A stretch of 64,000 bases of DNA, from positions 133,343-197,342 of the forward strand of contig MNVE01000016.1 of the NCBI GenBank assembly GCA_001871475.1, given 5' to 3'. This DNA is from Candidatus Micrarchaeota archaeon CG1_02_47_40 (GTDB taxonomy: Archaea > Micrarchaeota > Micrarchaeia > Anstonellales > CG1-02-47-40). The notes below the pieces were generated by a model that saw only the letters and a list, made by a program, of their open reading frames with translations, was not told the DNA's origin and searched no databases. Shown here in pieces: positions 5,184 through 52,210 of this stretch (the first letter of the stretch is position 1; each line of letters opens with the position of its first letter). Made by a program: the position numbers and the translations under genes.

Positions 5184-5489
5184 TCAGAAATATCCAAGCC
5201 ATTTTTCGTATTCCTTGTGCGTTCCTACGAAATAAACCATTTTTGTTTTCTTCTCCTCATCAATCTGCTTGTCCTGACGGACAAGTCTTGACGCTTGCGC
5301 GTCAATTTCATAGCATAGTTTATATTGCCCTATTTCGGAAACGAAAAACGGAGCACCTTTCTTCAGATGCCTTGCGGGAATCGGCTCGCAGTGCTGGAGT
5401 ATTTTGTTCACGACTCTTTTTTTCATTGCCGTGTCAAGCTTTGAGAAATATGCGTCCCATCCCTCGTGGAATTGGATTTGGTATGCCAT
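5184..5489 (-). CDS. RelE/ParE-superfamily toxin carrying a 14-aa in-frame palindromic insertion
   Basis: MAYQIQF..WD.YF.KLD, IGQYKLCYEI...MVYFVGTH pattern. Lies directly downstream of an RHH-type antitoxin gene. Confidence 0.7.
   Translation of the reverse strand: MAYQIQFHEGWDAYFSKLDTAMKKRVVNKILQHCEPIPARHLKKGAPFFVSEIGQYKLCYEIDAQASRLVRQDKQIDEEKKTKMVYFVGTHKEYEKWLGYF
5260..5306. repeat. Palindromic element type A (two hairpins) inside the RelE-like CDS
   Basis: CTTGTCC-tgac-GGACAAG-tc-TTGACGC-ttgc-GCGTCAA with TCAAT at 5260-5264 and 5302-5306 (42-bp period). Related copies at 45364-45405 and 46595-46637 in the opposite orientation. Confidence 0.85.
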
Positions 5490-5502: not shown

Positions 5503-5784
5503 TCAAAAGGCTTCCGGGTATTTTTTCCTTACTTCATTCAGGGTGAGCGTTCTTTTTCCGCCGCTCTTCAACTCCTCCTGCATCTTTTCCATCTTTGCCA
5601 CTGCAAGCTCATCCAGAATTTCTTCGTTTGATTTTACCACGTGGTAATCTTTCCCAAGCTCAAGGATGCCTGCCCGCACAGCTTCGGCTTTGGTTTTGAA
5701 AAAGCCCGCATCCAGAAGGCGATTTAGTACCTGTTCTACCGAACCCTCAAGATGCACGAATATGCCTGACATTGGAACCACCAT
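5503..5784 (-). CDS. Ribbon-helix-helix (CopG/ParD-like) antitoxin
   Basis: IFVHL...LNRLLDAGFFKTKAEAVRAGILEL RHH pattern and a C-terminal GKRTLTLNEV tail, upstream of the toxin. Confidence 0.7.
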   Translation of the reverse strand: MVVPMSGIFVHLEGSVEQVLNRLLDAGFFKTKAEAVRAGILELGKDYHVVKSNEEILDELAVAKMEKMQEELKSGGKRTLTLNEVRKKYPEAF

Positions 5785-5870: not shown

Positions 5871-6572
5871 ATGGATGGAACAATCATTTTGAGAATAGAA
5901 CATGCGTTGCGTGAAAAGGACGCAATTGAGAGTATAATGCGCATGGCATTCACCTATCCCCAGACGGAGTTTTCCCTCTCGGAAATGGCGCAGGGGGCAA
6001 ATGTATCAAAGAGCACCGCAAGCAGAGCGCTCCAGCAGCTTGCCCTGGCTGGATTGGTAAAAATAACTGATTTAGGGGTTGTTTGGAGGATATCTGCAAA
6101 CAGGCGCTCCCCCGTTTATATAAGGGAGAAGATAGTTTACAACCTCTCGCTGATTTACCGCTCAAACTTGGTTGATTTTCTGGCTGCGCTCTTCAAATCT
6201 CCGCGCGCGCTTGTGCTTTTTGGAAGCTTTAGGAGGGGCGAGGATGTAAAAGATTCGGATATTGACATTGCAGTGGAGCTTGATTCCTTTGGGGAGACGA
6301 AAACTGCGGAACTTTCAAAAATAGAAGGATTGAGTCAAAAGCAGGTGTCGGATATAGTAAATGTTGAAAAAGTGATTGGAAGGAAGTTTGTGCTTACCGT
6401 ATTTGATAGAAAGAATGTGGATGCCAACCTCTTCAACGGCATAGCAAACGGGATAGTGCTGAATGGTTTTCTTGAGGCGGGGAAAGAAGCGGAAAGGGAA
6501 ATGGCGGAAAAAAGGGAAGGAGTGGAAAAAATAACTCCATTCTCACAGTCGGCAGGCAGGGAATATGGATAA
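5871..6572 (+). CDS. Winged-HTH plus minimal nucleotidyltransferase (MNT) antitoxin
   Basis: SLSEMAQGANVSKSTASRALQQL HTH and LFGSFRRGEDVKDSDIDIAV (GS-x10-DxD) motif. Confidence 0.85.
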   Translation: MDGTIILRIEHALREKDAIESIMRMAFTYPQTEFSLSEMAQGANVSKSTASRALQQLALAGLVKITDLGVVWRISANRRSPVYIREKIVYNLSLIYRSNLVDFLAALFKSPRALVLFGSFRRGEDVKDSDIDIAVELDSFGETKTAELSKIEGLSQKQVSDIVNVEKVIGRKFVLTVFDRKNVDANLFNGIANGIVLNGFLEAGKEAEREMAEKREGVEKITPFSQSAGREYG

Positions 6573-6975
6573 AAAAAGAATTGAAGAGCTTGAAAATGCA
6601 GGCGAGTTGCGAAGAAGAAGCCCTGACAAGGCACGGATACGTTCCATGCTGGAAGCGGCAAAGAGAACATCGGAGTATGTGTGCCGGCTTGAAATAAACG
6701 AGGAAAGCGCTGCTGTTGTATTCCGTGAGCTTTATGAATGCTTACGGCAGATTGGTGATGCACTGCTTTGGCGTTCTGGATGGGAGCCGCTAAAGCACAC
6801 AGCAAGCATTGAAGCACTCAAAGAGGAAGTAGGGTATGTGGATTATGAAAAGCTGGACAGGTTAAGGATTATTAGAAATAATGCAAACTATAGGGGATAT
6901 TCAGTAAGCGTGCAAAACGCGCTTGAGATAAAGGAGCTTTGGGAGAAATGGGGAAGAAGGATTGCAGAGAGATAG
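6565..6975 (+). CDS. HEPN-domain protein (partner of MNT)
   Basis: Overlaps the MNT stop. All-helical, with H-x-x-x-I and RIIRNNANY (R-x4-Y type) motifs. Confidence 0.75.
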   Translation: MDKKRIEELENAGELRRRSPDKARIRSMLEAAKRTSEYVCRLEINEESAAVVFRELYECLRQIGDALLWRSGWEPLKHTASIEALKEEVGYVDYEKLDRLRIIRNNANYRGYSVSVQNALEIKELWEKWGRRIAER

Positions 6976-7149: not shown

Positions 7150-10100
7150 GTGGGACTTATGACAAAAAGCATTGAATTGAAGGTCGCAGAAGCCCTCCAG
7201 CAGGATGTTGGAAGAGGTATAGTCAGGATAGACTCTCGCGCACGGGAAGCGCTTGGGGTTTCTACCGGCGATATTGTTGAATTAAAGGGGAAGAGAAGCA
7301 CCGCTGCGATAGTATGGCAGGCGCACCCGCAGGATGAGGGGATGAGCATAGTGCGCATGGACGGGTACCTGCGCCAGAATACCGGAGTCGCTTTACAGGA
7401 CAGGATAATGGTGAAAAAGGCTGAAACCGTTGAAGCGAAAAAAGTGGTGCTTGCGCCAATGCAGCCCATAAAATACTCTCCTGGTTTCGATCAGTTTGTG
7501 CTAAAGAGGTTGATTGGAAGAGCTCTCACAAAAGGGGACATGATATTTGTCGGGGTGTTTGGCACTTCCTTTCCGCTGATTGCGGCGCTTGTGCAGCCCA
7601 GCGGCATGGCAATGATAACGGACAGGACGGAATTGGTGCTAAAGGAAGAGCCGATAAAGAAAACCGGCACCGGCCTGACGCTCTCTTATGAGGATGTGGG
7701 AGGCTTGAAGGAAGAGGTGCGAAAGATAAGGGAGATGGTGGAATTGCCCATGCGCCACCCGGAGCTTTTTGAGAAATTGGGAATAGAGGCGCCAAAGGGA
7801 GTGCTCATATACGGCCCGCCCGGAACGGGAAAAACACTGCTTGCAAAAGCTGTCGCAAGCGAGTCTGAAGCGAATTTTATACACATAGGCGGACCGGAGC
7901 TTGTCAGCAAGTTCGTAGGTGAGAGCGAGGAGAAGCTAAGGCAGCTCTTCAAGGATGCCGAGGAGAACGCGCCCTCAATAATATTCATGGATGAGCTGGA
8001 TGCGATTGCCCCAAAGAGAGAGGAGGTTACGGGTGAAGTGGAAAAGAGGATGGTGAGCCAATTGCTCACTTTAATGGATGGATTGAAAGCGCGCGGGCAG
8101 GTAATAGTTATCGGAGCGACCAACCGCGTGAATTCCATAGACCCGGCGCTGCGCCGCCCGGGACGGTTTGACCGCGAGATAGAGATTGGAGTGCCTGACA
8201 GGAAGAGCAGATTGGAGATTTTACAGATACATACCCGCGGAATGCCCCTTGAGAATGATGTGAATCTTGAGGAGCTTTCCGGAATCACCCACGGCTACAC
8301 CGGCGCTGATATTTCCTCCCTGACAAAGGAGGCGGCAATGAAAACCTTGCGAAGGATACTGCCGCAGATTAATTTGGAGCAGGACACTATACCTCCGGAG
8401 ATACTTGAAAATTTGCGCGTAACAAGAGAAGATTTCTTCAACGCACTGCGCGAAATCCTTCCCTCTGCGCTGCGTGAAGTGTTCCTTGAGAGGCCGAACG
8501 TGCACTGGGGAGACATGGGCGGGATGGAGAAGGTGAAGGAGGAAATGAAGGAGGCGATAGAATTGCCCCTAAAGCGGCCCGAGATTTTCTCGAAGTTTGG
8601 CATCCGCCCGATAAAAGGAATTTTATTAGTTGGCTTGCCTGGCACGGGAAAAACGATGATTGCAAAAGCGGTTGCCACCGAAACAGAAGCGAATTTCATT
8701 TCCATAAAGGGGCCTGAAGTGCTATGCCTTGCGCCGGGCACTCCGATATTCACTGACAATTGCGGACTGCGCGAGATTTCCGAATTTTATGAGAGAATAA
8801 AAGATAAGACAACTGTTGAAAGAGCCACGGATTCGCTGGAAGTAAGAAAACTCAATGAACCGGTATTCACTTTCGGAATAGGAAAGAACGGACAGATTGA
8901 AAAAACGAAAATAGAAAGAATGCATAGAGTATTTGTTCCGAAAAGCTATGAGATTGCGCTCTCAAACGGAACTGCCCTGACCGTTTCTGAAAACCAGCCG
9001 TTTTATGCCTATGCAGACGGAGAAATTAGATGGGTGAAAACATCGGAGCTCAAAGAAGGAAGCTGGATAGCGGTGCCTGCGCAAATTCCCGCGTTTGCGA
9101 AGGAAATGACAATTGCCCCTCCTTCCGACGAGCATCTTAGAATGGTGCAGGAAAATGAGGAATTTGCAGAAATGAGAGTATTCTCTGCAAGGGAAACGGC
9201 TAGACTTCCAAAAAAACTTAGCGAGGATTTGGCTGAATTCTTAGGGTGGTTCGTGGCAGAGGGAAACATCTCAAAGGAAGGAATAAGCATTGCGAACGCA
9301 GATAAAGAGAATAAAGGAAGGATAAAGAAATTGTTTGGACTTTTTGTGCCGGCGGAAAGAATAAGGGAGTATTCGGACAAGACGGTAGTTTATTCTACTC
9401 CGCTTGTGCATTATCTTGAAGGAATATTTGAAATGTTTTTGAGGAGAAAGAAATCGGGGATTATTGGCGTTCCTTCAATAATTTTCAAATCCGACTGTAG
9501 GAGGATTGCGCGCTTCTTAAGGGGAGCTTACCTTGGCGACGGACACCTTGGAAAAACAAAGGTGGAATACGGAACGATGAGCAAAAAACTGGCGCATGGA
9601 ATCACTTATCTGCTTTCAATACTTGGAATAAAATATAGGCGATGGGAAAGAAAAGACAGAATGTGGATGATTACGATATCCGGAAAAAAAGAGATTTCCG
9701 CATTCAAATCAGCAGTGTTCGGAGAAGAAGCTGGCAAAGTAAGAAGATATTACAATGCTCGCTATCACATTCCGGATGTAAGCGCTTTGCTGCGTGAAGC
9801 AAAAAGCGCTCTGAACCTCAAGTATGATAAAGAAATTCCAGAAGGCTTGTTTGAGGGCGTGTTAAGCGGAAGAAAGAGGTGCGGATTGATAAGATTGCAA
9901 AGAATGATGAGTTATTTGGAAAAATATGCAGATGAAAAATTCAGGAAAAGCAGATGCTGCGCCTCGCTGTCTCTTATGTCAAAGGGAACCCTTGCGTGGA
10001 TTAGAGTGGAAAAAAAGACAGCGGGAGGTCAGATGTGGATGTATGATCTTGAAACGGAAAATTCAAGCTTTATCGGAGGAGAGCTTCCGACCGTGCTCCA

Positions 10101-10692
10101 CAACTCAAAATGGGTTGGAGAAAGCGAGAAAGCGGTTAGGGAGATTTTCCGCAAGGCAAGGACTGCCGCTCCCTGCATCATTTTCATAGATGAGATAGAC
10201 GCCGTAGGAAGCTGGAGGGGCGTTGCGGATGATGCAGGAGGCAGGGTGCGCGAGAGCGTCGTGAATACTTTCTTGACTGAAATGGACGGGCTTACCAATC
10301 TGAAAAACGTGGTGGTGATTGCGGCTACAAACAGGCCGGACATACTTGACCCCGGATTGCTTCGCGCAGGCAGGTTTGACAAGATAATAGAGATGACTGT
10401 GCCTGATGAGAAGACGAGGCACGAAATATTCAAGGTGCACACGAAAAAGATGCCCCTTGCAAAGGATGTGGATTTGGAGGAGCTTTCAAAGAAAACCGAG
10501 GAGAATACCGGAGCGGATATAGAAAATATCTGCAGGGAGGCAGGCATGCATGCAATACGCGAAAATCCGGAGGGCGCAAGCGTAGAAATGAAGCACTTCC
10601 TCTCCGCAATGAAGAGCATACGCCCGACAGTAACGAAGGCGCATGTTGAAAGCATGAAGAAGTTCGCAAAGCAGGACGCGATGTTCAGGTAA
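7150..10692 (+). CDS. cdc48: CDC48/VCP AAA+ ATPase precursor containing an intein
   Basis: N-domain ([10 protein letters not shown]), D1 GPPGTGKT / MDELD / [10 protein letters not shown]2 GLPGTGKT / IDEID / RAGRFD. Start may be ATG 7159. Confidence 0.95.
8725..10104 (+). mobile_element. Intein (460 aa) with LAGLIDADG homing endonuclease
   Basis: Interrupts the conserved GPEVL|SKWVGESE. Begins CLAPGT, ends VLHN followed by Ser+1. Motifs [12 protein letters not shown] and [10 protein letters not shown], and block F MYDLE. Confidence 0.95.
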
Positions 10693-11297: not shown

Positions 11298-11930
11298 ATG
11301 GAAAAATCGGAAGGAGATTTTTCCAGACTTGCCTTAGAGAGCAAGCAGATGGAGGAGTTAAGAGGTGCGGAAGCTGTTTTGAAGGGGAAGAAAGTTGATG
11401 GAGAGAAGGCGCTTTGTAAAATAAGGGGGAAAAAAGGATATAGGAATGCGCTCTTGGATGCTAAGTTGCGGAAAGGAAGAACTAAAAGGGAAGCAAAATT
11501 AATGCAGAAAGCTTCTGAAGCCGGCGTTCCCTGCCCTGCTGTTTTTGGAGTGCGGGAGTTTGAAATTGATTTTTCCTTTATAGAAGGGAGATTGGCAAGC
11601 GAAATGAGGCTGGATGGAAATGCCCTGAAAGAATCTGCCAGACTTCTCTCCCTGCTTCACTCCATAAACATCATTCACGGAGATTATACCCCTGCAAACC
11701 TCATTATTGGAAAGGGAGGCAGGGTAAGCGTAATTGATTTTGGCTTGGGTTTCTTTTCGCATAAATTAGAGGATAAGGCGGTTGACGTATTTACGATGAA
11801 GCAGGCGCTTGAAGGAGGAATGGGGAAGAAATTCGTTGAGGAGTATGAAAAGTTTGGAGAGAAAGGAGTAGTTGAGAGGATGAGAGAGGTGGAGAGCAGA
11901 GCGAGATATCGGGAGAGAAAGGAGAAATGA
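11298..11930 (+). CDS. bud32: KEOPS-complex kinase Bud32
   Basis: RGAEA, K.R..KGYR...LD.KLR..RT.REA, IIHGDYTPAN, IDFGL, EDKAVD and a terminal RARY motif. Confidence 0.9.
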   Translation: MEKSEGDFSRLALESKQMEELRGAEAVLKGKKVDGEKALCKIRGKKGYRNALLDAKLRKGRTKREAKLMQKASEAGVPCPAVFGVREFEIDFSFIEGRLASEMRLDGNALKESARLLSLLHSINIIHGDYTPANLIIGKGGRVSVIDFGLGFFSHKLEDKAVDVFTMKQALEGGMGKKFVEEYEKFGEKGVVERMREVESRARYRERKEK

Positions 11931-41425: not shown

Positions 41426-42190
41426 TTATATTTTGCCTTTTGGCAGGCGCGAATCCAAAAATGGGAAGACCTCTTCCCATGCGGGTTTGTTTTTTGTCAG
41501 CATATCAAGCGAATTCCAACTTTTCGCCTGCTGATTGATTTTTTTGCGAATATCGCCCCAGTCTGGAATTTCTTTGCATAATGCCATTTTCTGCCTGACG
41601 ATTTCAGGCTCCAAATTTGCGCCTTTTTGCAGAAGAAAGTGCAAGTCATAAACATCCCGCACCTGATTCCGCTGCCATATTGCACGGATTTTTTCTGCTG
41701 CGATTTCTTCCAATTGCATTATGGGCAGAACATAGGAAAGCATATCGGAATAAATCGGCTTTATAGCCAGTGCCTGCGCTGGCATCAGCAAATCCTTTCT
41801 TAATGAAAGGTCAAAGCGCACGGAGCATTTTGAGCGGCTGCTGCCGTCAAAGAGCACTCCTTCTATTAAGAATCTGCCCGATGCTCCGTCTCCAAACGGA
41901 TTGGGCGCCCTTGCAAGCTCGCAACGGTATCCCTGACTTTCCAGCCATTCGGCAGCTTCGTCAAAAACTTTCAGCCGGTGTTCGTTTTCCACGCGCTCGC
42001 AGAAATCAAGGTCCTCGGAAAACCGTTGCAGCCCGTATGCCTTCTGCAGAGCCGTGCCTCCCTTGAAAACAAGCGAAGTTGTTTTTGATGCGATGAAGAG
42101 AAGCAGGAGATGCTGGAAATAATCCTTCTCCTGCTGATTAAGATTGAAGCCTGTGCGCAGTTTGTATCCCTCAAGCTCTTTTCTGTCCAT
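41426..42190 (-). CDS. AbiEii-family nucleotidyltransferase toxin (type IV TA)
   Basis: EKDY, FKGGTAL..YGLQRFSEDLDF, AEKIRA and RD.YDL motifs. Confidence 0.9.
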   Translation of the reverse strand: MDRKELEGYKLRTGFNLNQQEKDYFQHLLLLFIASKTTSLVFKGGTALQKAYGLQRFSEDLDFCERVENEHRLKVFDEAAEWLESQGYRCELARAPNPFGDGASGRFLIEGVLFDGSSRSKCSVRFDLSLRKDLLMPAQALAIKPIYSDMLSYVLPIMQLEEIAAEKIRAIWQRNQVRDVYDLHFLLQKGANLEPEIVRQKMALCKEIPDWGDIRKKINQQAKSWNSLDMLTKNKPAWEEVFPFLDSRLPKGKI

Positions 42191-42785
42191 TAAACCGCCT
42201 CCTAAAGCGAATGAATCTTCTCAATGCGCTTTTATTTTGGTAAAGCCTGACAAAATTCTCAACTGCCCTTAAATTAAACCTGCTCGCTCTCCTGAAATAG
42301 GCTGCCGCCGATTCTGTTTCCTCATCACCAGCCAAATCAGGTCTTGCTATGCAGTCTGCAATCGCTTTCTCCCTTCCTGCAACGAAATATTTTTTACTGC
42401 CTGCTTTTGCGGGATGGAACCCTCCGAATGCCCGCGCAGGAGTGCGATGAAAGGTTATTTCATAATTTGCAAATTTTACAGCTCTTGCGGATGCGGCGGC
42501 GGCAACTTGCACCTGCACGGGTATCTGCGTGCCCGCCCCATGAAGGATGAGCGCGCTCAAAAAAGAGATATATGAAGGTCTGATAATCGCAGTTGCGACA
42601 GCTTCTGCCGATTCGCCCGCAAGCGCGTAAAGCCCGTTTTTTATTCTGCAAAGAACCCCGGAAGAGCAAAGGCGGCTTGCAAGCACATACGGCGAATTCG
42701 TGCCTGCAATAAGCCCAAGCATTTTTGTTGAGTATACTGGATTGTCAAGCTCGCGGAGCTTCTCCACCAATTCAAATCTATTCAT
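42171..42785 (-). CDS. AbiEi-family antitoxin / transcriptional regulator
   Basis: RIKNGLY, PSYISF.SAL..HG..TQIP and EKAIAD motifs. Overlaps AbiEii by 20 nt. Confidence 0.85.
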   Translation of the reverse strand: MNRFELVEKLRELDNPVYSTKMLGLIAGTNSPYVLASRLCSSGVLCRIKNGLYALAGESAEAVATAIIRPSYISFLSALILHGAGTQIPVQVQVAAAASARAVKFANYEITFHRTPARAFGGFHPAKAGSKKYFVAGREKAIADCIARPDLAGDEETESAAAYFRRASRFNLRAVENFVRLYQNKSALRRFIRFRRRFNGQKRA

Positions 42786-42835
42786 GGATGTGCTTTGCAG
42801 GGAAAAGGATATAAATATATGCATTCTAACTTCAA

Positions 42836-45130: not shown

Positions 45131-45413
45131 TTTGACGCTTGTGCGTCAAAATTTGAACGCTCCCGCGTTCAACCCTACGGTTTGAGTGTGCTTCGCACAC
45201 ACGCTGTCCTTCGGACACCTATTGACAACTCACGTTGCCAACTGCCCAACAGCTACGCTGTTGGTTTCTCAAACACCGTGCGAGCAGAGTAGATGCAATT
45301 CTCATCCCGACTGCTCTCACGGTGTTCACCCGTTTGAAGACGAAGTCTTCAAATTTTGCCCGATTGACGCTGAAGGCGTCAAGACTTGTCCGAAGGACAA
45401 GCAGAAGGGCAAA
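45131..45413. repeat. Array of about nine hairpins including type A and type B palindromic elements
   Basis: Stems at 45131-45150, 45153-45172, 45186-45200, 45205-45217, 45246-45264, 45272-45326, 45333-45353, 45364-45382 and 45385-45401. Confidence 0.85.
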
Positions 45414-45758: not shown

Positions 45759-45843
45759 AACCGAGGATGAATTCTTCTTTTAAATGAGCGTTGAAGTTAT
45801 CAAAAATGATAACTTTAAATACTTTTTGGAAGAATATATTATC

Positions 45844-46506
45844 ATGAATGATACGGAATGGCTCAAGAAACATCCCACAATAAGGCTGGCGGATATAGAG
45901 AGAAGATGCAAAAGCCATAACTACGCCAAGCTCTTTGCGCACAGAATGCAAAAAAAAGGGATTTTGCATAAAGCAGCAAGAGGAATTTATTCCGCTTCTG
46001 AAGAAGTATTTGCAGTCGCATCAAACATTCATTATCCGAGCTATGTTTCTTTTTTGTCCGCTTCCTATTTATACGGCTTTACCGAAACGATACCCCGCAT
46101 AGTTTCCATTGCAGCGGCAAAAAAATACAGCAAAATAGAGTTCAAAGGGTATACGATAGAATTCGTTCGGATGAAGGAGCTCTGGGGTTATAAAAACGAG
46201 AACGGGGTGTTTTTGGCAGAGCCTGAAAAACTGCTGATAGACGCATTCCTAAAGCCAAAAAGCATGGGGAATTTTGAGGAAATCGAAAGGCTCTTTGGAG
46301 GCTCTTTGGAGATAAATGCTGAAAAACTCAAAACCTACCTAAAAAAAACCAATTCAGACAGAGTATACAGGTGCGTCGGGTATATGCTGGAAAAGCACAG
46401 AAAAATAGACATATCGCGCCTTATGCGCATTGATAGGAACTATTATGAGCTGAATCCGTTTGAAAGCGGCGCGGGTATAAACAGAAAATGGAGGCTTAAG
46501 GTATGA
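45844..46506 (+). CDS. AbiEi-family antitoxin / transcriptional regulator
   Basis: ARGIY, PSYVSFLSA..YGFTETIP and AEPEKLLID motifs. ATG 45844 follows a TTTAAATA TATA-like box. Confidence 0.85.
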   Translation: MNDTEWLKKHPTIRLADIERRCKSHNYAKLFAHRMQKKGILHKAARGIYSASEEVFAVASNIHYPSYVSFLSASYLYGFTETIPRIVSIAAAKKYSKIEFKGYTIEFVRMKELWGYKNENGVFLAEPEKLLIDAFLKPKSMGNFEEIERLFGGSLEINAEKLKTYLKKTNSDRVYRCVGYMLEKHRKIDISRLMRIDRNYYELNPFESGAGINRKWRLKV

Positions 46507-46508
46507 AA

Positions 46509-46700
46509 AATCGCATTGCGATTGGAGACGATGGATATGGTTGTATTGTTTAGTCTCCAAAACATGACGCTGCAGTGTCATGCAGATTTTTCAGTTGACG
46601 CCAGGGGCATCAAGACTTGCTCAACAGAGCAAGCAGAAATTGACCGGAGGTTTGACGGCGAAGCCGTCAAATTTTGACACCTCCGGTGTCAAAGGTCAAT
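46509..46700. repeat. Hairpin cluster, including a type A element, between abiEi and abiEii
   Basis: Stems at 46509-46523, 46522-46560, 46563-46582, 46595-46613, 46616-46633, 46651-46671 and 46673-46693. ATTGACC/GGTCAAT encloses the last two. Confidence 0.85.
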
Positions 46701-46703
46701 AAG

Positions 46704-47450
46704 ATGAACACAAAAGAGCTTGGGGAGTATGCCCGTCTGCGGGGCTTGAACTTAGGGCAGGCTGAAAAGGATTATTACCAAAATATACTCCTTTTTCTGC
46801 TCTACGGCAGTGTCTCAAAAGAACTTGTCTTCAAGGGAGGAACAGCCCTCTCAAAATGTTATGGATTAAACAGATTTTCAGAGGATCTTGATTTTACAGT
46901 TCTGGAGGAAAGGGATTTCATTATTATTCTGGAAAAGGGGCTTGGGGAATTTGGCATTCTTCACATGGTAAAGGAGGAGAAAACGGCTGCCCAAAGCAAA
47001 AAATACAGGCTTAAGGTGCAGGGCCCTCTTTACAGAGGGCTTGAGAGAACGCTCTGCTCAATAACGCTTGATTTCAGCTTTAGGGAGAAGGTGCTTTCCC
47101 CTCCGCTTATCAAAACCATCGGGCATCATATGGATATAATACCGGTTTTTGACGTTTATGTTATGAGCCAGAACGAGATATTGGCGGAGAAGATAAGGGC
47201 GCTTCTTGCAAGAAAATCCGCAAGGGATTTGTATGACATTGTTTTTTTATTAAGAAACGGGGCGGTTGTTGATGAGAAAATGATAAGGCAGAAGCTTGCG
47301 CTGTGCGGAATGGAATTTGACAGAAAAACATTCATTTCAAGATGCGGTTTGCTTGAGGGGATATGGGAAAGCGAGCTTAAATCGCTTGTGAAGAATGTCC
47401 CTTCCTTTAAGGAGTATGTTGGAATGGTGAAGGGGAAGGTTGAGAGATAG
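46704..47450 (+). CDS. AbiEii-family nucleotidyltransferase toxin (type IV TA)
   Basis: AEKDY, FKGGTALSKCYGLNRFSEDLDF, AEKIRA and RDLYD motifs. Confidence 0.9.
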   Translation: MNTKELGEYARLRGLNLGQAEKDYYQNILLFLLYGSVSKELVFKGGTALSKCYGLNRFSEDLDFTVLEERDFIIILEKGLGEFGILHMVKEEKTAAQSKKYRLKVQGPLYRGLERTLCSITLDFSFREKVLSPPLIKTIGHHMDIIPVFDVYVMSQNEILAEKIRALLARKSARDLYDIVFLLRNGAVVDEKMIRQKLALCGMEFDRKTFISRCGLLEGIWESELKSLVKNVPSFKEYVGMVKGKVER

Positions 47451-47896: not shown

Positions 47897-50800
47897 TCAG
47901 AAGGAACGGGTGATTTTCCCATATATGAAGTAATCGTTCTTCTTTGTCGGTTCGTATATCCATTCATCAACAACACCAAATCCGAAGTAGCCTGGCTTTC
48001 CGACGATGCTGCCGATTACTCCAAATTCGCCCTGGGCGGTTGCAGAGCGGATTTGCTCGTATTGGGAAAGACCGAGTCCAAGGCATGCCCTAAACTGTCC
48101 AAAGTATTTTTCACCTTTGAAGCCGCCAGTATAAAGCGGCGCACCTTCATCTTCGCCGTATCCTGCCTGCTTCGTGAAATTGAGCATGTAATTGTAAGTC
48201 CTGCCTGCGTGGGTAAAAGTTACCTTCCAAAGGTCTGAATCCACATAAACCCCATTAACCATAATCGGACCCCAGGCAACCCCCCCCTCTGTGGCAATGC
48301 CTCCTTTGCCTATTGGGGAGTTCGGCGGGAGTTTTTCCGCAAAAAGAAGCAGTTTGAAGTTGTCAAGCTTCCAGATGGCGCCCACACCAAGGTTTGTATT
48401 TTTCAGTTTTTCATCCTCCCCAAGGTCAAAACTGGCGACTACAGAGAAATTATCTTTCAAATCAATCATCGTTGAAACGATGTTCCTTTTCTTTCCGCCT
48501 TCAACTCCGGGTGTTTGGGAAAATGAGAGCATCATGCCCGGCGTTCCATCCTCGCTCCTTATTTTCATTGTGAAATCGCGTATGCTGCCTCCTGCAAGCT
48601 GATTGAGAAGGGAGTAATTATCAGCCCCCATGAATGATGATTTCATCGCTTCAGAAACTGTGTAGAGCGCGGCTTTCTTTTCTACCTCAGTTGAGGCAGG
48701 AGTGTTTAAAACTTCCTGATATGCGCCATATGCACTCTTCAGGGCAGTTAAGTCAAGGTTTTGGGGCACGAAAAGCGAGTATGCGCTGTTCTGCGACGGG
48801 TCTGACCAATTTGCCATAACTTCCATGTCTGCAGTTCCAAGCTTGGTTTGGAGATTTGTGGTGTAGCGGTTGTAGCCCTCTTCGTACTTTCTGTATTGAC
48901 TGCGCATTGTCGTTGCGAGATATTTTCCTTCAAATCCTCCAACGAAAGAGTCAAGCTTTTGCCCTTCGCCCGTCTGGGTTTCATCAACGCGCCATGACCC
49001 AAATCCATATCCTCTTGCAAGAAGCCCTGTCTCTCCTTTCTGGCGGGTGTATTCGCCGCTTTGATATCCTATATTCGCCCCTCCAAAGTGCGAATTGCCA
49101 TTATGATCGCTTAGCGCGATTGTAGCGGCAAGTATGCGCTCGTTTTCAAACTCCTTTCTCGCGGAAGTTGATGCTATTCCTATCTGGTTTTGCGCGCCCT
49201 GCGCGAGTTCGCCCTCAACCTTGCTTATGGTTTCCATGTCGCCATAATTTTGCTGAAAAATGTTTCCGGTGCCTGTGCCGGTAAGGTTGCTAAGCTTGTT
49301 CTCGTTTAGAGTATACCAGCCTATTTTCACTTCGTATTTTTCGCCTGATGCCTGCACGGCTTCGGCGCGCTCCCTTTGAACGGTTTGCGCATTGATTCCG
49401 GCAAACTTGATGCTTTTCCCAAGCGCATCGCTTCCAAGCGCAGCATAGAAGCCAGTATGAGTGCCTGCAACATTCTCCTGCCCTAAAGGAACATCATAAA
49501 TTCTCTGCTGGATGCCTACGCTTCCCTGAAACGCGCCTTCATCATATGAGCCAATGCGGGAGAATATGTTTCCTACCTTTTCAATGGAATCCTGTGATGT
49601 AGTATAAAGCGCTTTTCTGACATCGTCTGTCAAAATGAGTTCAACCCAAGTCGTGCCTGCCATGCGCCAATAGACGTGCAAATCATCCATGTAATTGCTT
49701 GTTTCGCTTGTTTGGGCTTGCGAGCCGGTGCTGTGCCAGTCATAATGCATAAGCAGGGAGGATTGGGCATACGGCGAGCTGTTGAGCTGTGCCACAACAT
49801 TTTCGTTGACTGCCTTGTATGACTGGGATTCCTGCTGTGTTGCCTGTAAATTGTATTGAAGATTTCTGATGAGCGCGCCGCCTATGAGCGGCAGTTTGCT
49901 ATTTTGTATTTCAGCGTATGCCTGCTGATTTGTTGAATCTGTGCCTGCATTTTCAGAGGTGGTTGAGATTACGCCTCCGCTTGCGTTTGAGAGGGGGTTT
50001 ATGGAGTTCCAAACTCCTTCTCCAGTTATTCCTTTGTGTTGTGCATTATCAAACGTGTTGCCTCCTGCAAGCGTGCCGTCTAATGAACCGACTCCGCCCA
50101 TTCTCGGAAAACCCCTTCCAAGCGCCCCCTCAAGAGACTCGTCAAGGGCGCGCTGTGCGAACGTTATGTCTGTGTAGTACTCCCTTTCAAGCCCTCTTAA
50201 GAAGAGCCTTGCAAATCCATCCCGCGTCCATTGCCTGTTCTTGAAAGAGTAAAGCTCCCTGCGGCTCTCCTCAAGCTGATAGGGCATCGAGCTTTGGAAT
50301 GTCTGCCCGATTGTGGTTATTGGGTATGGCTCGTCAAATGGTCCGAATAAATGCCTTCCGAATTGGTCGCGCAAAAACCCGAAAACGTTGTCATAAGGCG
50401 AAATCAGATATTCATTAATTCCGGTTATTGCCGATGGCTTTATGTAAATAATTCCCTTGTCGCTGACACCTATCTGTTCATTGGTGAAATTCGCGACAAA
50501 ATTATCCGTATTCAGGTCGTATTGCGCCATGCTTGAGAAAAAGGCGCCAAGCTTTGCTTTCTTTTCCTCTTGGGTGCCCGGATATCCGTAAACGGTCATT
50601 GCATACTCTGCGGTTGAATTGAGTATTTGCAGCCTTGTGGAGTAATCAACCACTGAAATGTCCGGGAATATTTTTTTAAGCAATTTCTCCTGCCCCATAA
50701 GCTCGTGCATTACGGCATTTGATTTTCCCTTATTGGCAGAAAATAGGTCGCGCAGGGGATTTGCACCGTAAATTGAGTTTGAGATTTCATTTATGCCCGT

Positions 50801-52210
50801 ATCTATAGAGAAGGCCGCATTTGCCATGCTGACACTTCCTGTTGCATTCTGTTCGGGATTTTGGAGTATGCCCCAAATCTGGTTCTGGTTTTGGCTAAGC
50901 CAGTCAAGCCCCTGCGTTATGTGCGTAATGCCGCTCATGTCTGCGCCGCCAACATTCATGCCTGCAAGAAGCTGTTGTTTGTAATCAAGAAGCCTGCCAA
51001 GGATTGGGATGAGCTGCATATTAAAAACGTTTTGCGAAAGGCCGTTTGCAGAGCCAAAAAGATTATTCAGATTTGTATATTCCGTCCTGAAAGCCGCTAG
51101 ATATTGCACTGCAGATTCATAGGCAGGCGTCGCATTCAGGTTTAACTGGGAGATTGGCAGTTCTTTGTTGTTTATCAGGCTTATTCCCTTTAGGATTGTT
51201 TCCATATTGTATACTGAACGCCTGTAAAGATACGCCGCTTCCGGTCCGTTTAAGTTGAATACTTGGTCGGGCAGGACGTTCACTGCTGCAAAGCCGGAAA
51301 CCAGCTCATCTGCCGCCGAGGAATTTTTCTGCCTTGCCCTTTCAAGGTTTCCCTTTATCGCGCCTTCTTCAAGAAGTGCGTTTGCAAGTGATTTATACTG
51401 CTCAAGAATGCCTGCATTCTTTCTGATGCCTTGCGTGTTTATGCCGTGTGCAGTTAGGGTTTTGTCGTAGGCGGACATGTCCGGACCATAAACTGCCTTT
51501 ATTGCAAATTCTGCTGCGGCAGGGATTATCAGAAATTTTCCAGCAGCATCCTTCTTTTCAACATCGTCCAGTTTTCCAATCATTTTTTTTATTGCTTCCT
51601 CGTCGCCCATATAATTGAAAATGTATTCCCTTGTGGCATAATCAACTGCGTTTATAAGTGAAACGCATTTTGCGGCATCCCTTGAGAATGCCTGCAGGGA
51701 TTGCCCAATAATTATATTGCTGTTTTTGAGAAGCTCCAATTCCGTTGCGTCATCCCTAATATTGCTGTGTTTGTCGTCCCATTGCTTGCAGAGGGAGTCA
51801 AAACTCTGCAAGTCGTCCCAGTTTGAATAGTTGATTATCTGCATTGTCAGGTTGAAAAAATCTTTCTTAAGCCCAAGCGTATGAAGCGTCTGGTCAAATT
51901 CATTTTTACCTTCTGTTGGGGTGTATTGTGTGTCGTTGTAGACTTTTTTTGGAGTTGAAACGAGAATATCGCTTTTTGGCAGTTGTGTTGGTGGTTCCCC
52001 GGCTTTCTGTAGAAGATTTTCAAGATTTCGCATATATGCAAGCGCCTTGGCTTGCTCATTTGATTTGTATGCACTTTGAAGATTTCTCAATTCCGCCAAA
52101 AGAGAGGGATATCGCTCGGTGCCTTTAAAGGCATCTACCCTCGTTTGAAACTCCTCTATTTGCCTTGGTTCGATGGAAAGTTGCAGGCTGCCCATAATTA
52201 ACACTCTCAC
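47897..52210 (-). CDS. Very large hypothetical protein (1437 aa): helical N-half, beta-barrel-like C-half
   Basis: Uninterrupted ORF overlapping the upstream stop. The C-half is Gly/Thr/Gln/aromatic-rich with alternating strands and ends YFIYGKITRSF. Start may be ATG 52195. Confidence 0.8.
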   Translation of the reverse strand: MRVLIMGSLQLSIEPRQIEEFQTRVDAFKGTERYPSLLAELRNLQSAYKSNEQAKALAYMRNLENLLQKAGEPPTQLPKSDILVSTPKKVYNDTQYTPTEGKNEFDQTLHTLGLKKDFFNLTMQIINYSNWDDLQSFDSLCKQWDDKHSNIRDDATELELLKNSNIIIGQSLQAFSRDAAKCVSLINAVDYATREYIFNYMGDEEAIKKMIGKLDDVEKKDAAGKFLIIPAAAEFAIKAVYGPDMSAYDKTLTAHGINTQGIRKNAGILEQYKSLANALLEEGAIKGNLERARQKNSSAADELVSGFAAVNVLPDQVFNLNGPEAAYLYRRSVYNMETILKGISLINNKELPISQLNLNATPAYESAVQYLAAFRTEYTNLNNLFGSANGLSQNVFNMQLIPILGRLLDYKQQLLAGMNVGGADMSGITHITQGLDWLSQNQNQIWGILQNPEQNATGSVSMANAAFSIDTGINEISNSIYGANPLRDLFSANKGKSNAVMHELMGQEKLLKKIFPDISVVDYSTRLQILNSTAEYAMTVYGYPGTQEEKKAKLGAFFSSMAQYDLNTDNFVANFTNEQIGVSDKGIIYIKPSAITGINEYLISPYDNVFGFLRDQFGRHLFGPFDEPYPITTIGQTFQSSMPYQLEESRRELYSFKNRQWTRDGFARLFLRGLEREYYTDITFAQRALDESLEGALGRGFPRMGGVGSLDGTLAGGNTFDNAQHKGITGEGVWNSINPLSNASGGVISTTSENAGTDSTNQQAYAEIQNSKLPLIGGALIRNLQYNLQATQQESQSYKAVNENVVAQLNSSPYAQSSLLMHYDWHSTGSQAQTSETSNYMDDLHVYWRMAGTTWVELILTDDVRKALYTTSQDSIEKVGNIFSRIGSYDEGAFQGSVGIQQRIYDVPLGQENVAGTHTGFYAALGSDALGKSIKFAGINAQTVQRERAEAVQASGEKYEVKIGWYTLNENKLSNLTGTGTGNIFQQNYGDMETISKVEGELAQGAQNQIGIASTSARKEFENERILAATIALSDHNGNSHFGGANIGYQSGEYTRQKGETGLLARGYGFGSWRVDETQTGEGQKLDSFVGGFEGKYLATTMRSQYRKYEEGYNRYTTNLQTKLGTADMEVMANWSDPSQNSAYSLFVPQNLDLTALKSAYGAYQEVLNTPASTEVEKKAALYTVSEAMKSSFMGADNYSLLNQLAGGSIRDFTMKIRSEDGTPGMMLSFSQTPGVEGGKKRNIVSTMIDLKDNFSVVASFDLGEDEKLKNTNLGVGAIWKLDNFKLLLFAEKLPPNSPIGKGGIATEGGVAWGPIMVNGVYVDSDLWKVTFTHAGRTYNYMLNFTKQAGYGEDEGAPLYTGGFKGEKYFGQFRACLGLGLSQYEQIRSATAQGEFGVIGSIVGKPGYFGFGVVDEWIYEPTKKNDYFIYGKITRSF

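Follow-up and report, generated by a model that had tools for sequence, protein, structure and literature searches.

An in-frame palindromic insert in a Micrarchaeota RelE toxin gene and the double-hairpin repeat family to which it belongs

A RelE-type toxin gene of Candidatus Micrarchaeota archaeon CG1_02_47_40 carries within its coding sequence a 42-nt palindromic segment that keeps the reading frame. The gene lies in a 64,000-nucleotide stretch of contig MNVE01000016.1 (C11:133343-197342; the window, to which all coordinates refer unless a contig is named before the number). What is this segment, and how could it have come to lie inside a gene?

The insert and its host gene

The host gene (5184..5489, minus strand) encodes a protein of 101 aa that was identified as a RelE-fold toxin by profile, fold and homologue matches. 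A protein search found 14 homologues, each of 85–90 aa, and their alignment with the window protein showed a single 14-column gap at the insert in all 14, so that homologues without the insert do exist, as originally predicted. The alignment profile of the homologues matched RelE of T. thermophilus (2khe, E 2.6e-5) and of E. coli, and 2khe was also the top Foldseek match (E 5.8e-5) of the AlphaFold2 model of the insert-bearing protein. Fold and sequence profile thus both place the protein in the RelE/ParE toxin superfamily. In the model (mean pLDDT 73.6) the fold was kept, pLDDT fell below 50 at residues 64–78 only, and the insert was located in the turn joining strands 56–63 and 82–90. The 42 nt are predicted to be translated, and the 14 added residues are predicted to form a disordered beta-turn extension, that is, a tolerated surface loop. 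Residue 58, in the YRL motif, is a lysine where 13 of the 14 homologues have arginine, a position that in E. coli RelE is held by a catalytic arginine. Judging from these residues, the toxin may be weakened by K58, and tolerance of the insert may reflect that. A 93-aa ORF upstream (5503..5784, minus strand; no convincing Pfam match) is likely the antitoxin, given its position and the gene order.

The element itself adds 14 codons and occupies 5264..5305 on the minus strand according to sequence, homologue alignment and model match, its exact junctions being reconstructed from homologues of 45–67% identity. Letters, coordinates and the in-frame gain of 14 aa were all recovered as originally predicted. 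Read along the coding (minus) strand, it starts with hairpin A (5288..5305), a 7-bp stem with a GCAA loop of a TTGAC...GTCAA type common to about 10 copies in the source genome, followed by a GA spacer (5286-5287), hairpin B (5268-5285; CTTG...CAAG, 7-bp stem) and a CAGA foot (5264-5267). The GA, hairpin B and CAGA make up a constant module (5264..5287, minus strand), which corresponds to invariant alignment columns that were partly fixed by the search pattern. Directly 3' of the element lies the host sequence TTGATG (5258..5263, minus strand), the target, with which the 3' arm of hairpin A is also able to pair over 6 bp (one G-T); the target is identical to the first 6 nt of the element at 5 of 6 positions. 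Because the arm of hairpin A pairs with the target in this way, ATTGA occurs twice in the gene, at 5302-5306 and 5260-5264. A covariance model of the repeat matched this copy, which was in its training set, at 5256-5295 (E 5e-11).

The whole stretch was found in one contig, with no difference, in 4 of 4 runs (two of them possible sources), and the insert is not an assembly artefact. The runs carrying this DNA are groundwater metagenomes. No empty-site joint skipping the element was found in the contigs, which lose rare variants, of eight runs (four whole and four partial carriers), and no close relative with an empty RelE site was found.

A structured repeat family in Micrarchaeota

The covariance model, built from 35 copies, gave four strong matches within the window. 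Both intergenic copies claimed originally, at 45364-45405 and 46595-46637, proved real. The former is the core of a longer copy (45355..45413, plus strand) whose outer stem closes a three-way junction, and the latter (46595..46637, plus strand) is followed by further A-type hairpins. The ORF upstream of the former resembles, we presume, a tRNA-splicing endonuclease, and the ORFs flanking the latter are taken to be an AbiE-like pair. The fourth copy (11299..11349, plus strand), missed originally, is a 51-nt in-frame element at the start codon of a Bud32-like kinase gene, where ATGGA is repeated; if the first ATG is used, it adds a 17-aa N-terminal extension relative to the orthologues.

In the source genome (1.15 Mb, 16 contigs, 93% complete) the model gave 54 matches, 45 of them at E<0.01, a number that counts arrays repeated at contig ends. 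Perfect adjacent double hairpins numbered 61 in this genome and 1–2 in each of three block shuffles; the plain pattern matched 25 times and its reversed-pattern control 0 times. A survey of the order covered 150 genomes and scored 44 candidates in each; 53 genomes had a match at E≤0.05 and 27 had a best match at E<1e-5, and 13 of these 27 lie outside the training set. Copy numbers reached at least 20 in G008, 18 in G016, 10 in G228, 9 in G248 and 9 in G317, while G001, the sole genome of the source genome's family in the survey, had no element. This patchy spread across the order fits a mobile repeat. The proposed scan yielded dozens more copies in the source genome and in other genomes of the order, and the idea of a lineage-restricted mobile palindrome family is supported. 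In a genome scan, exact-pattern matches with the full grammar occurred in Micrarchaeota records only; the non-Micrarchaeota pattern matches (9 of 14) lack this grammar, look like chance and were rejected. A metagenome scan gave seven matches, all corresponding to places in the source genome. Among viral contigs, for which 80 of at least 120 loci were covered, five had stems ≥7 and none had the flank grammar. Rfam gave 0 matches above the gathering score in the window, and no description of the repeat in Micrarchaeota was found in a literature search that covered few subscription papers. The RelE insert is very probably an inserted mobile repeat.

The constant part of the family is GA, a hairpin opening with CTTG and closing with CAAG, and NNGA. 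Its four invariant stem pairs were set by the search pattern and are uninformative, but the first variable pair forms in all 35 alignment rows, by five different pair types, which bears out the claim that structure rather than exact sequence is conserved. The fixed two-hairpin unit of the original prediction did not hold, for only GA, hairpin B and NNGA are constant. Hairpin A is interchangeable: it may be of the TTGAC type, an A-run type, a type with GA facing GA, or have arms derived from the host target. A typical unit is 42–51 nt long with a core of 24 nt, and its ends (TTGA... and ...CAGA) are not inverted repeats. Units are nested within each other and form three-way junctions such as that at 45355-45413; they also form tandem arrays of 47-nt and 64-nt units at tRNA gene ends. 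The 47-nt array is found with one tRNA-Glu gene, at its 5' end, and the 64-nt array with another, at its 3' end. Both break the assembly (C15 3' end with C7 3' end; C10 3' end with C1 5' end), and their repeated host sequence is that of the acceptor stem.

About 92% of the source genome is coding by a crude ORF call, yet most copies are non-coding, as expected if only frame-keeping insertions in loops or at termini survive. Further in-frame copies add 16 aa to a P-type ATPase relative to G001 (15 aa relative to six other orthologues) and 32 aa to a 224-aa gene relative to its G035 orthologue. A 536-aa ORF on C13 holds a putative fifth in-frame copy. A copy also lies at the start of a giant ORF of 4572 aa (C15:88368-102086, minus strand).

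Target pairing, probable folding of one strand and possible mobilisation

The pairing seen in the RelE gene recurs in the family. Complementarity of at least 3 bp between the flank before GA and that after NNGA was found in 13 of 32 distinct copies of the source genome, with a mean of 1.2 and a maximum of 7 over 5000 permutations; in other genomes it was found in 6 of 20 copies (0.4 expected), and in further copies in 22 of 57 (2.6 expected). The 14 of 69 loci without a copy under the strict grammar were excluded from these counts, and the Bud32 copy was added by hand. Among 41 copies outside model training, pairing of at least 4 bp was found in 11 (0.8 expected; maximum 4 of 500) and a repeat score of at least 8 in 13 (1.2 expected). 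Direct flank pairing was lacking in 19 of the 32 copies of the source genome (<3 bp) and in 30 of the 41 independent copies (<4 bp), and many non-pairing copies sit within larger branched palindromes or have decayed. Template switches that perfect the palindrome could also have created flank pairing once the element was in place. The general form of a copy is a host sequence X, a loop, the reverse complement of the start of X, the module, and X again. Direct repeats are 4–31 bp long where present (0–31 bp overall), with long cases of 21, 23, 26, 28 and 31 bp, and among the repeated sequences are the starts and ends of host genes and the ends of tRNAs. The ATTGA repeat noticed originally is thus present, but as one case of general arm–target pairing and not as a fixed-length target duplication.

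At several loci the two X copies have diverged. At the MetRS end (L036, C1:182340-182460) the element lies between two diverged copies of the gene end, which show 5, 3 and 9 differences at first, second and third codon positions, hinting, in this one case, at a swapped gene end. Compared with G001, the two copies show 12 and 14 differences. At L028, L033, L027 and L333, too, the element is flanked by diverged copies of the end or the start of a gene; cases here are an Asn/Asp-tRNA synthetase end (in two genomes) and the start of a small basic protein. Diverged copies of this kind suggest that gene ends may be replaced around the element.

The structure is biased to one strand. Of 89 copies, 46 had a C-GNA-G loop on the GA strand and none had the reverse complement of this loop, a bias that is partly circular for copies outside the source genome, since the pattern and model that found them were rich in GAA loops. 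In the hairpin-A stems, GA stood opposite GA in 17 and TC opposite GA in 4. In single-stranded DNA, GNA triloops and sheared GA pairs show unusual stability. Relative to transcription, 9 of 37 copies were sense, 8 antisense and 20 ambiguous, and the copies inside tRNA introns were antisense. Loops on one strand and GA/GA mismatches, whatever the transcription, point to folded single-stranded DNA.

Taken together, we favour, with a probability of roughly 0.6, a non-autonomous element of folded single-stranded DNA whose insertion site is chosen by pairing between its arm and the target, the RelE copy being a tolerated, translated loop. The module would fold on the GA strand while its upstream arm pairs with target X, a pairing that would fix the joint at the 5' edge of X. 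A nick at that edge, or a free 3' end there, would be followed by strand transfer, or by fold-back or template-switch synthesis, leaving X, loop, reverse complement of X, module and X. Where a ready-made hairpin A is carried along, as in RelE, the shared core would be 4–6 bp; a hairpin A rebuilt from host DNA would give a long repeat, and re-entry at one site would produce tandem arrays. A copy in a gene would survive if it is a multiple of three nucleotides long and lies in a loop or at a terminus. The most likely actor would be a host replication or repair activity, or a structure-specific nuclease acting in trans.

Other explanations account for part of the same evidence. The family could be an ordinary REP/REPIN or a miniature element derived from IS200/IS605, moved by a Y1 HUH transposase (TnpA/RAYT) that cuts at a fixed short word; its REP-like size and hairpins, its BIME-like tandem arrays and the multi-copy IS200-like TnpA of the source genome, split over contig ends, agree with this. 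On the opposite strand, moreover, TCAA precedes the RelE copy and TCAA also forms its end, the topology expected of an IS200/IS605 insertion. We nevertheless regard it as unlikely, since the word after the module varies freely and repeats of up to 31 bp are unlike peel-and-paste transposition. Nor do Y1 genes, found in 41 of the 150 genomes, go with the element. A full-length strong element was found within 1.5 kb of them at 0 of 33 loci (30 in the order and 3 in the source genome; best E 0.019), and the Y1 genes, like the several TnpA copies of the source genome, carry their own IS200-type ends. No Y1 gene was found in G008 (at least 20 copies; 7 contigs, 92% complete) or G016 (at least 18 copies; 85%), whereas G012 had 14 Y1 matches and no element. 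The proposed RAYT/TnpA link was looked for and not found, and no REPtron was seen. An empty unit resembling an integron cassette, its folded strand serving as an attC-like site for a tyrosine recombinase, is improbable. The order of X, reverse complement of X, spacer, stem with variable tip, spacer and X matches the topology of attC and cassette, tyrosine recombinases are present in 4 of 5 other copy-rich genomes, and most differences between the MetRS copies of X fall on third codon positions, as they would after exchange for a foreign gene end. Against these points, there is no conserved GTT/AAC core, no gene cargo was seen, and no tyrosine recombinase scored over the cut-off in the source genome or in G016.

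Quite improbable, too, is a role in RNA, either as a kink-turn-like motif or as an intron that a broad-specificity archaeal splicing endonuclease cuts from the mRNA, giving a normal RelE. With GA opposite NNGA between two helices, the module resembles a kink-turn in geometry; copies are also frequent in tRNA introns, and the splicing endonuclease of Micrarchaeum is described as having broad specificity (PMC3239211). Yet both orientations occur, with the tRNA-intron copies antisense, and tandem G.A pairs with a 3-nt bulge on the transcribed strand were not found, the bulge being 2 nt. Inspection and folding showed no bulge-helix-bulge at the RelE junctions, and the coding inserts that were measured (42, 48 and 51 nt, and about 32 codons) all preserve the frame, in line with translation. 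It is highly improbable that the hairpins arose in place by slippage or palindrome correction, by chance or by misassembly, with no mobile unit, even though part of the insert was clearly copied from local DNA at many sites. This view is largely refuted by the constant module, which is not of host origin and is found again at dozens of unrelated places across many genomes; the excess of double hairpins over shuffles and of pattern matches over the reversed control, and the agreement of independent assemblies, also speak against it.

Apart from Y1 enzymes, reverse transcriptase was not found in the source genome, G008 or G016 and was present in 3 of 5 other copy-rich genomes. IS110 was found in 0 of 5 copy-rich genomes, and so was Y2 transposase, a negative made uninformative by a positive control that gave no match either. 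GIY-YIG gave one long-ORF match each in three of five genomes, the element-free G001 included. No RAYT/REPtron, IS110, reverse transcriptase or integrase common to all copy-rich genomes was found; as these genomes are all incomplete (84–93%), such negatives mean not found rather than absent. A short reverse transcriptase-like gene (open frame of about 240 aa) was seen in three copy-rich genomes of one family (f9), at G228:C11:673-1092, G248:C2:18553-18969 and G317:C24:7173-7592. The IS200-like TnpA of the source genome stands alone with hairpin ends and breaks contigs at the ends of C4, C9, C10, C15, C5 and C13, and its close relatives occur across the order.

Relation to known repeats, tRNA introns and further window features

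The likeness to Rickettsia palindromic elements (RPE) drawn originally is well founded, since here too a multi-copy palindrome lies in frame in unrelated genes. RPE, the Wolbachia WPE and a repeat of M. jannaschii are palindromic repeats with in-frame insertions (PMC2229807, PMC10969869, PMC2996958), so that such insertions have already been described in an archaeon (PMC2996958). Like these, according to the descriptions compared, the family is multi-copy, mostly intergenic, in frame at loops and found inside RNA genes, and has no cognate transposase shown. RPE are described as 105–146 bp long with terminal inverted repeats, neither of which applies here; the present family has instead a 24-nt constant core, a first hairpin that is interchangeable and pairs with the target, and units nested recursively. 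The mitochondrial double-hairpin elements (DHE) of chytrids and fission yeasts are likewise short, with two hairpins side by side, lie between genes or within genes for structural RNAs, and are described as putatively mobile with no known enzyme (PMC10085805). By that description, the present family differs in its location (an archaeal chromosome), its moderate GC, its arm that pairs with the target and its direct repeats of variable length. Yersinia YPAL/RU-2 elements resemble it in variable target duplications at or beside dyad symmetry (3–26 bp for YPAL, 4–31 bp here), and YPAL also lacks terminal inverted repeats (PMC2229807). YPAL is described as intergenic and about 168 bp long (PMC2229807), in contrast to a 24-nt core and a 42–51-nt unit, and the dyad here appears to be part of the insertion or built by it.

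REP, BIME and REPIN share with the family a hairpin of 20–40 nt, a short unpaired foot, tandem arrays and some intragenic copies (PMC3733652). Compared with the REP-RAYT systems described there, its feet are GA and NNGA rather than a GTAG/CGTC tag, no REPtron was found and Y1 genes are uncorrelated with it. Relative to DDE MITEs, it has neither terminal inverted repeats nor a target duplication of fixed length (0–31 bp). Integron attC sites have two helices, an unpaired asymmetric spacer, a variable tip, a one-strand structure and an outer helix completed by the next sequence. The family has this layout and lacks the GTT/AAC core, integrase and gene cargo. It works like RPE/WPE, DHE and YPAL and is a member of none, being set apart by their descriptions. 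New here are the rule of arm–target pairing, the strand bias, the order-wide survey and the negative enzyme tests. No enzyme is known to move RPE-, DHE- or YPAL-like repeats; with the many junctions in many genomes and the measurable rule of the present family (arm pairing, variable repeat, one-strand structure), the mechanism becomes testable. In a reduced DPANN genome, the family also illustrates how peptide loops are predicted to arise.

Inserts of this kind mislead gene callers and tRNA predictors; ARAGORN reported only 16 tRNAs in the source genome. In 14 of its tRNA genes, a T-loop insert of 50–160 nt starts with the same G-run/C-run palindrome, for example at C1:105922 (minus), C5:36043 (plus), C6:11424 (minus), C9:63653 (minus), C11:21172 (minus), C11:124753 (plus) and C15:137488 (plus). 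Five of these 14 inserts also hold the double-hairpin element, antisense, and the G-run/C-run palindrome occurs outside tRNAs too, for example at C13:31137, C15:228810 and C11:74019. The finding of the element inside tRNA introns is relevant to the arrival of introns in archaea, called an open question in a 2026 preprint on Asgard tRNAs (10.64898/2026.10.13.758758). A wider reading, possible but doubtful, is that the family represents a class of self-guided, enzyme-orphan mobile DNA: a 24-nt single-stranded adapter with an arm-programmed target, rewritable from host DNA, that may enter genes, swap gene ends and, with a sister palindrome, build T-loop introns in at least 14 tRNA genes of the source genome. 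If true, the self-guided adapter would be a DNA route for intron gain in archaea.

Several other features of the window and its genome were observed. A 1180-aa CDC48-like ORF (7150-10692) has, by eye, an apparent intein-like insert in its second ATPase domain, and a 1437-aa ORF (47897-52210, minus strand) belongs to no obvious family. Pairs resembling nucleotidyltransferase-type toxin–antitoxin systems lie at 5871-6975, 41426-42824 and 45784-47450 (HTH-nucleotidyltransferase by Pfam), and two of them are presumably AbiE-like. In the source genome, a CRISPR-like repeat array lies at contig ends (C12 3' end and C16 5' end).
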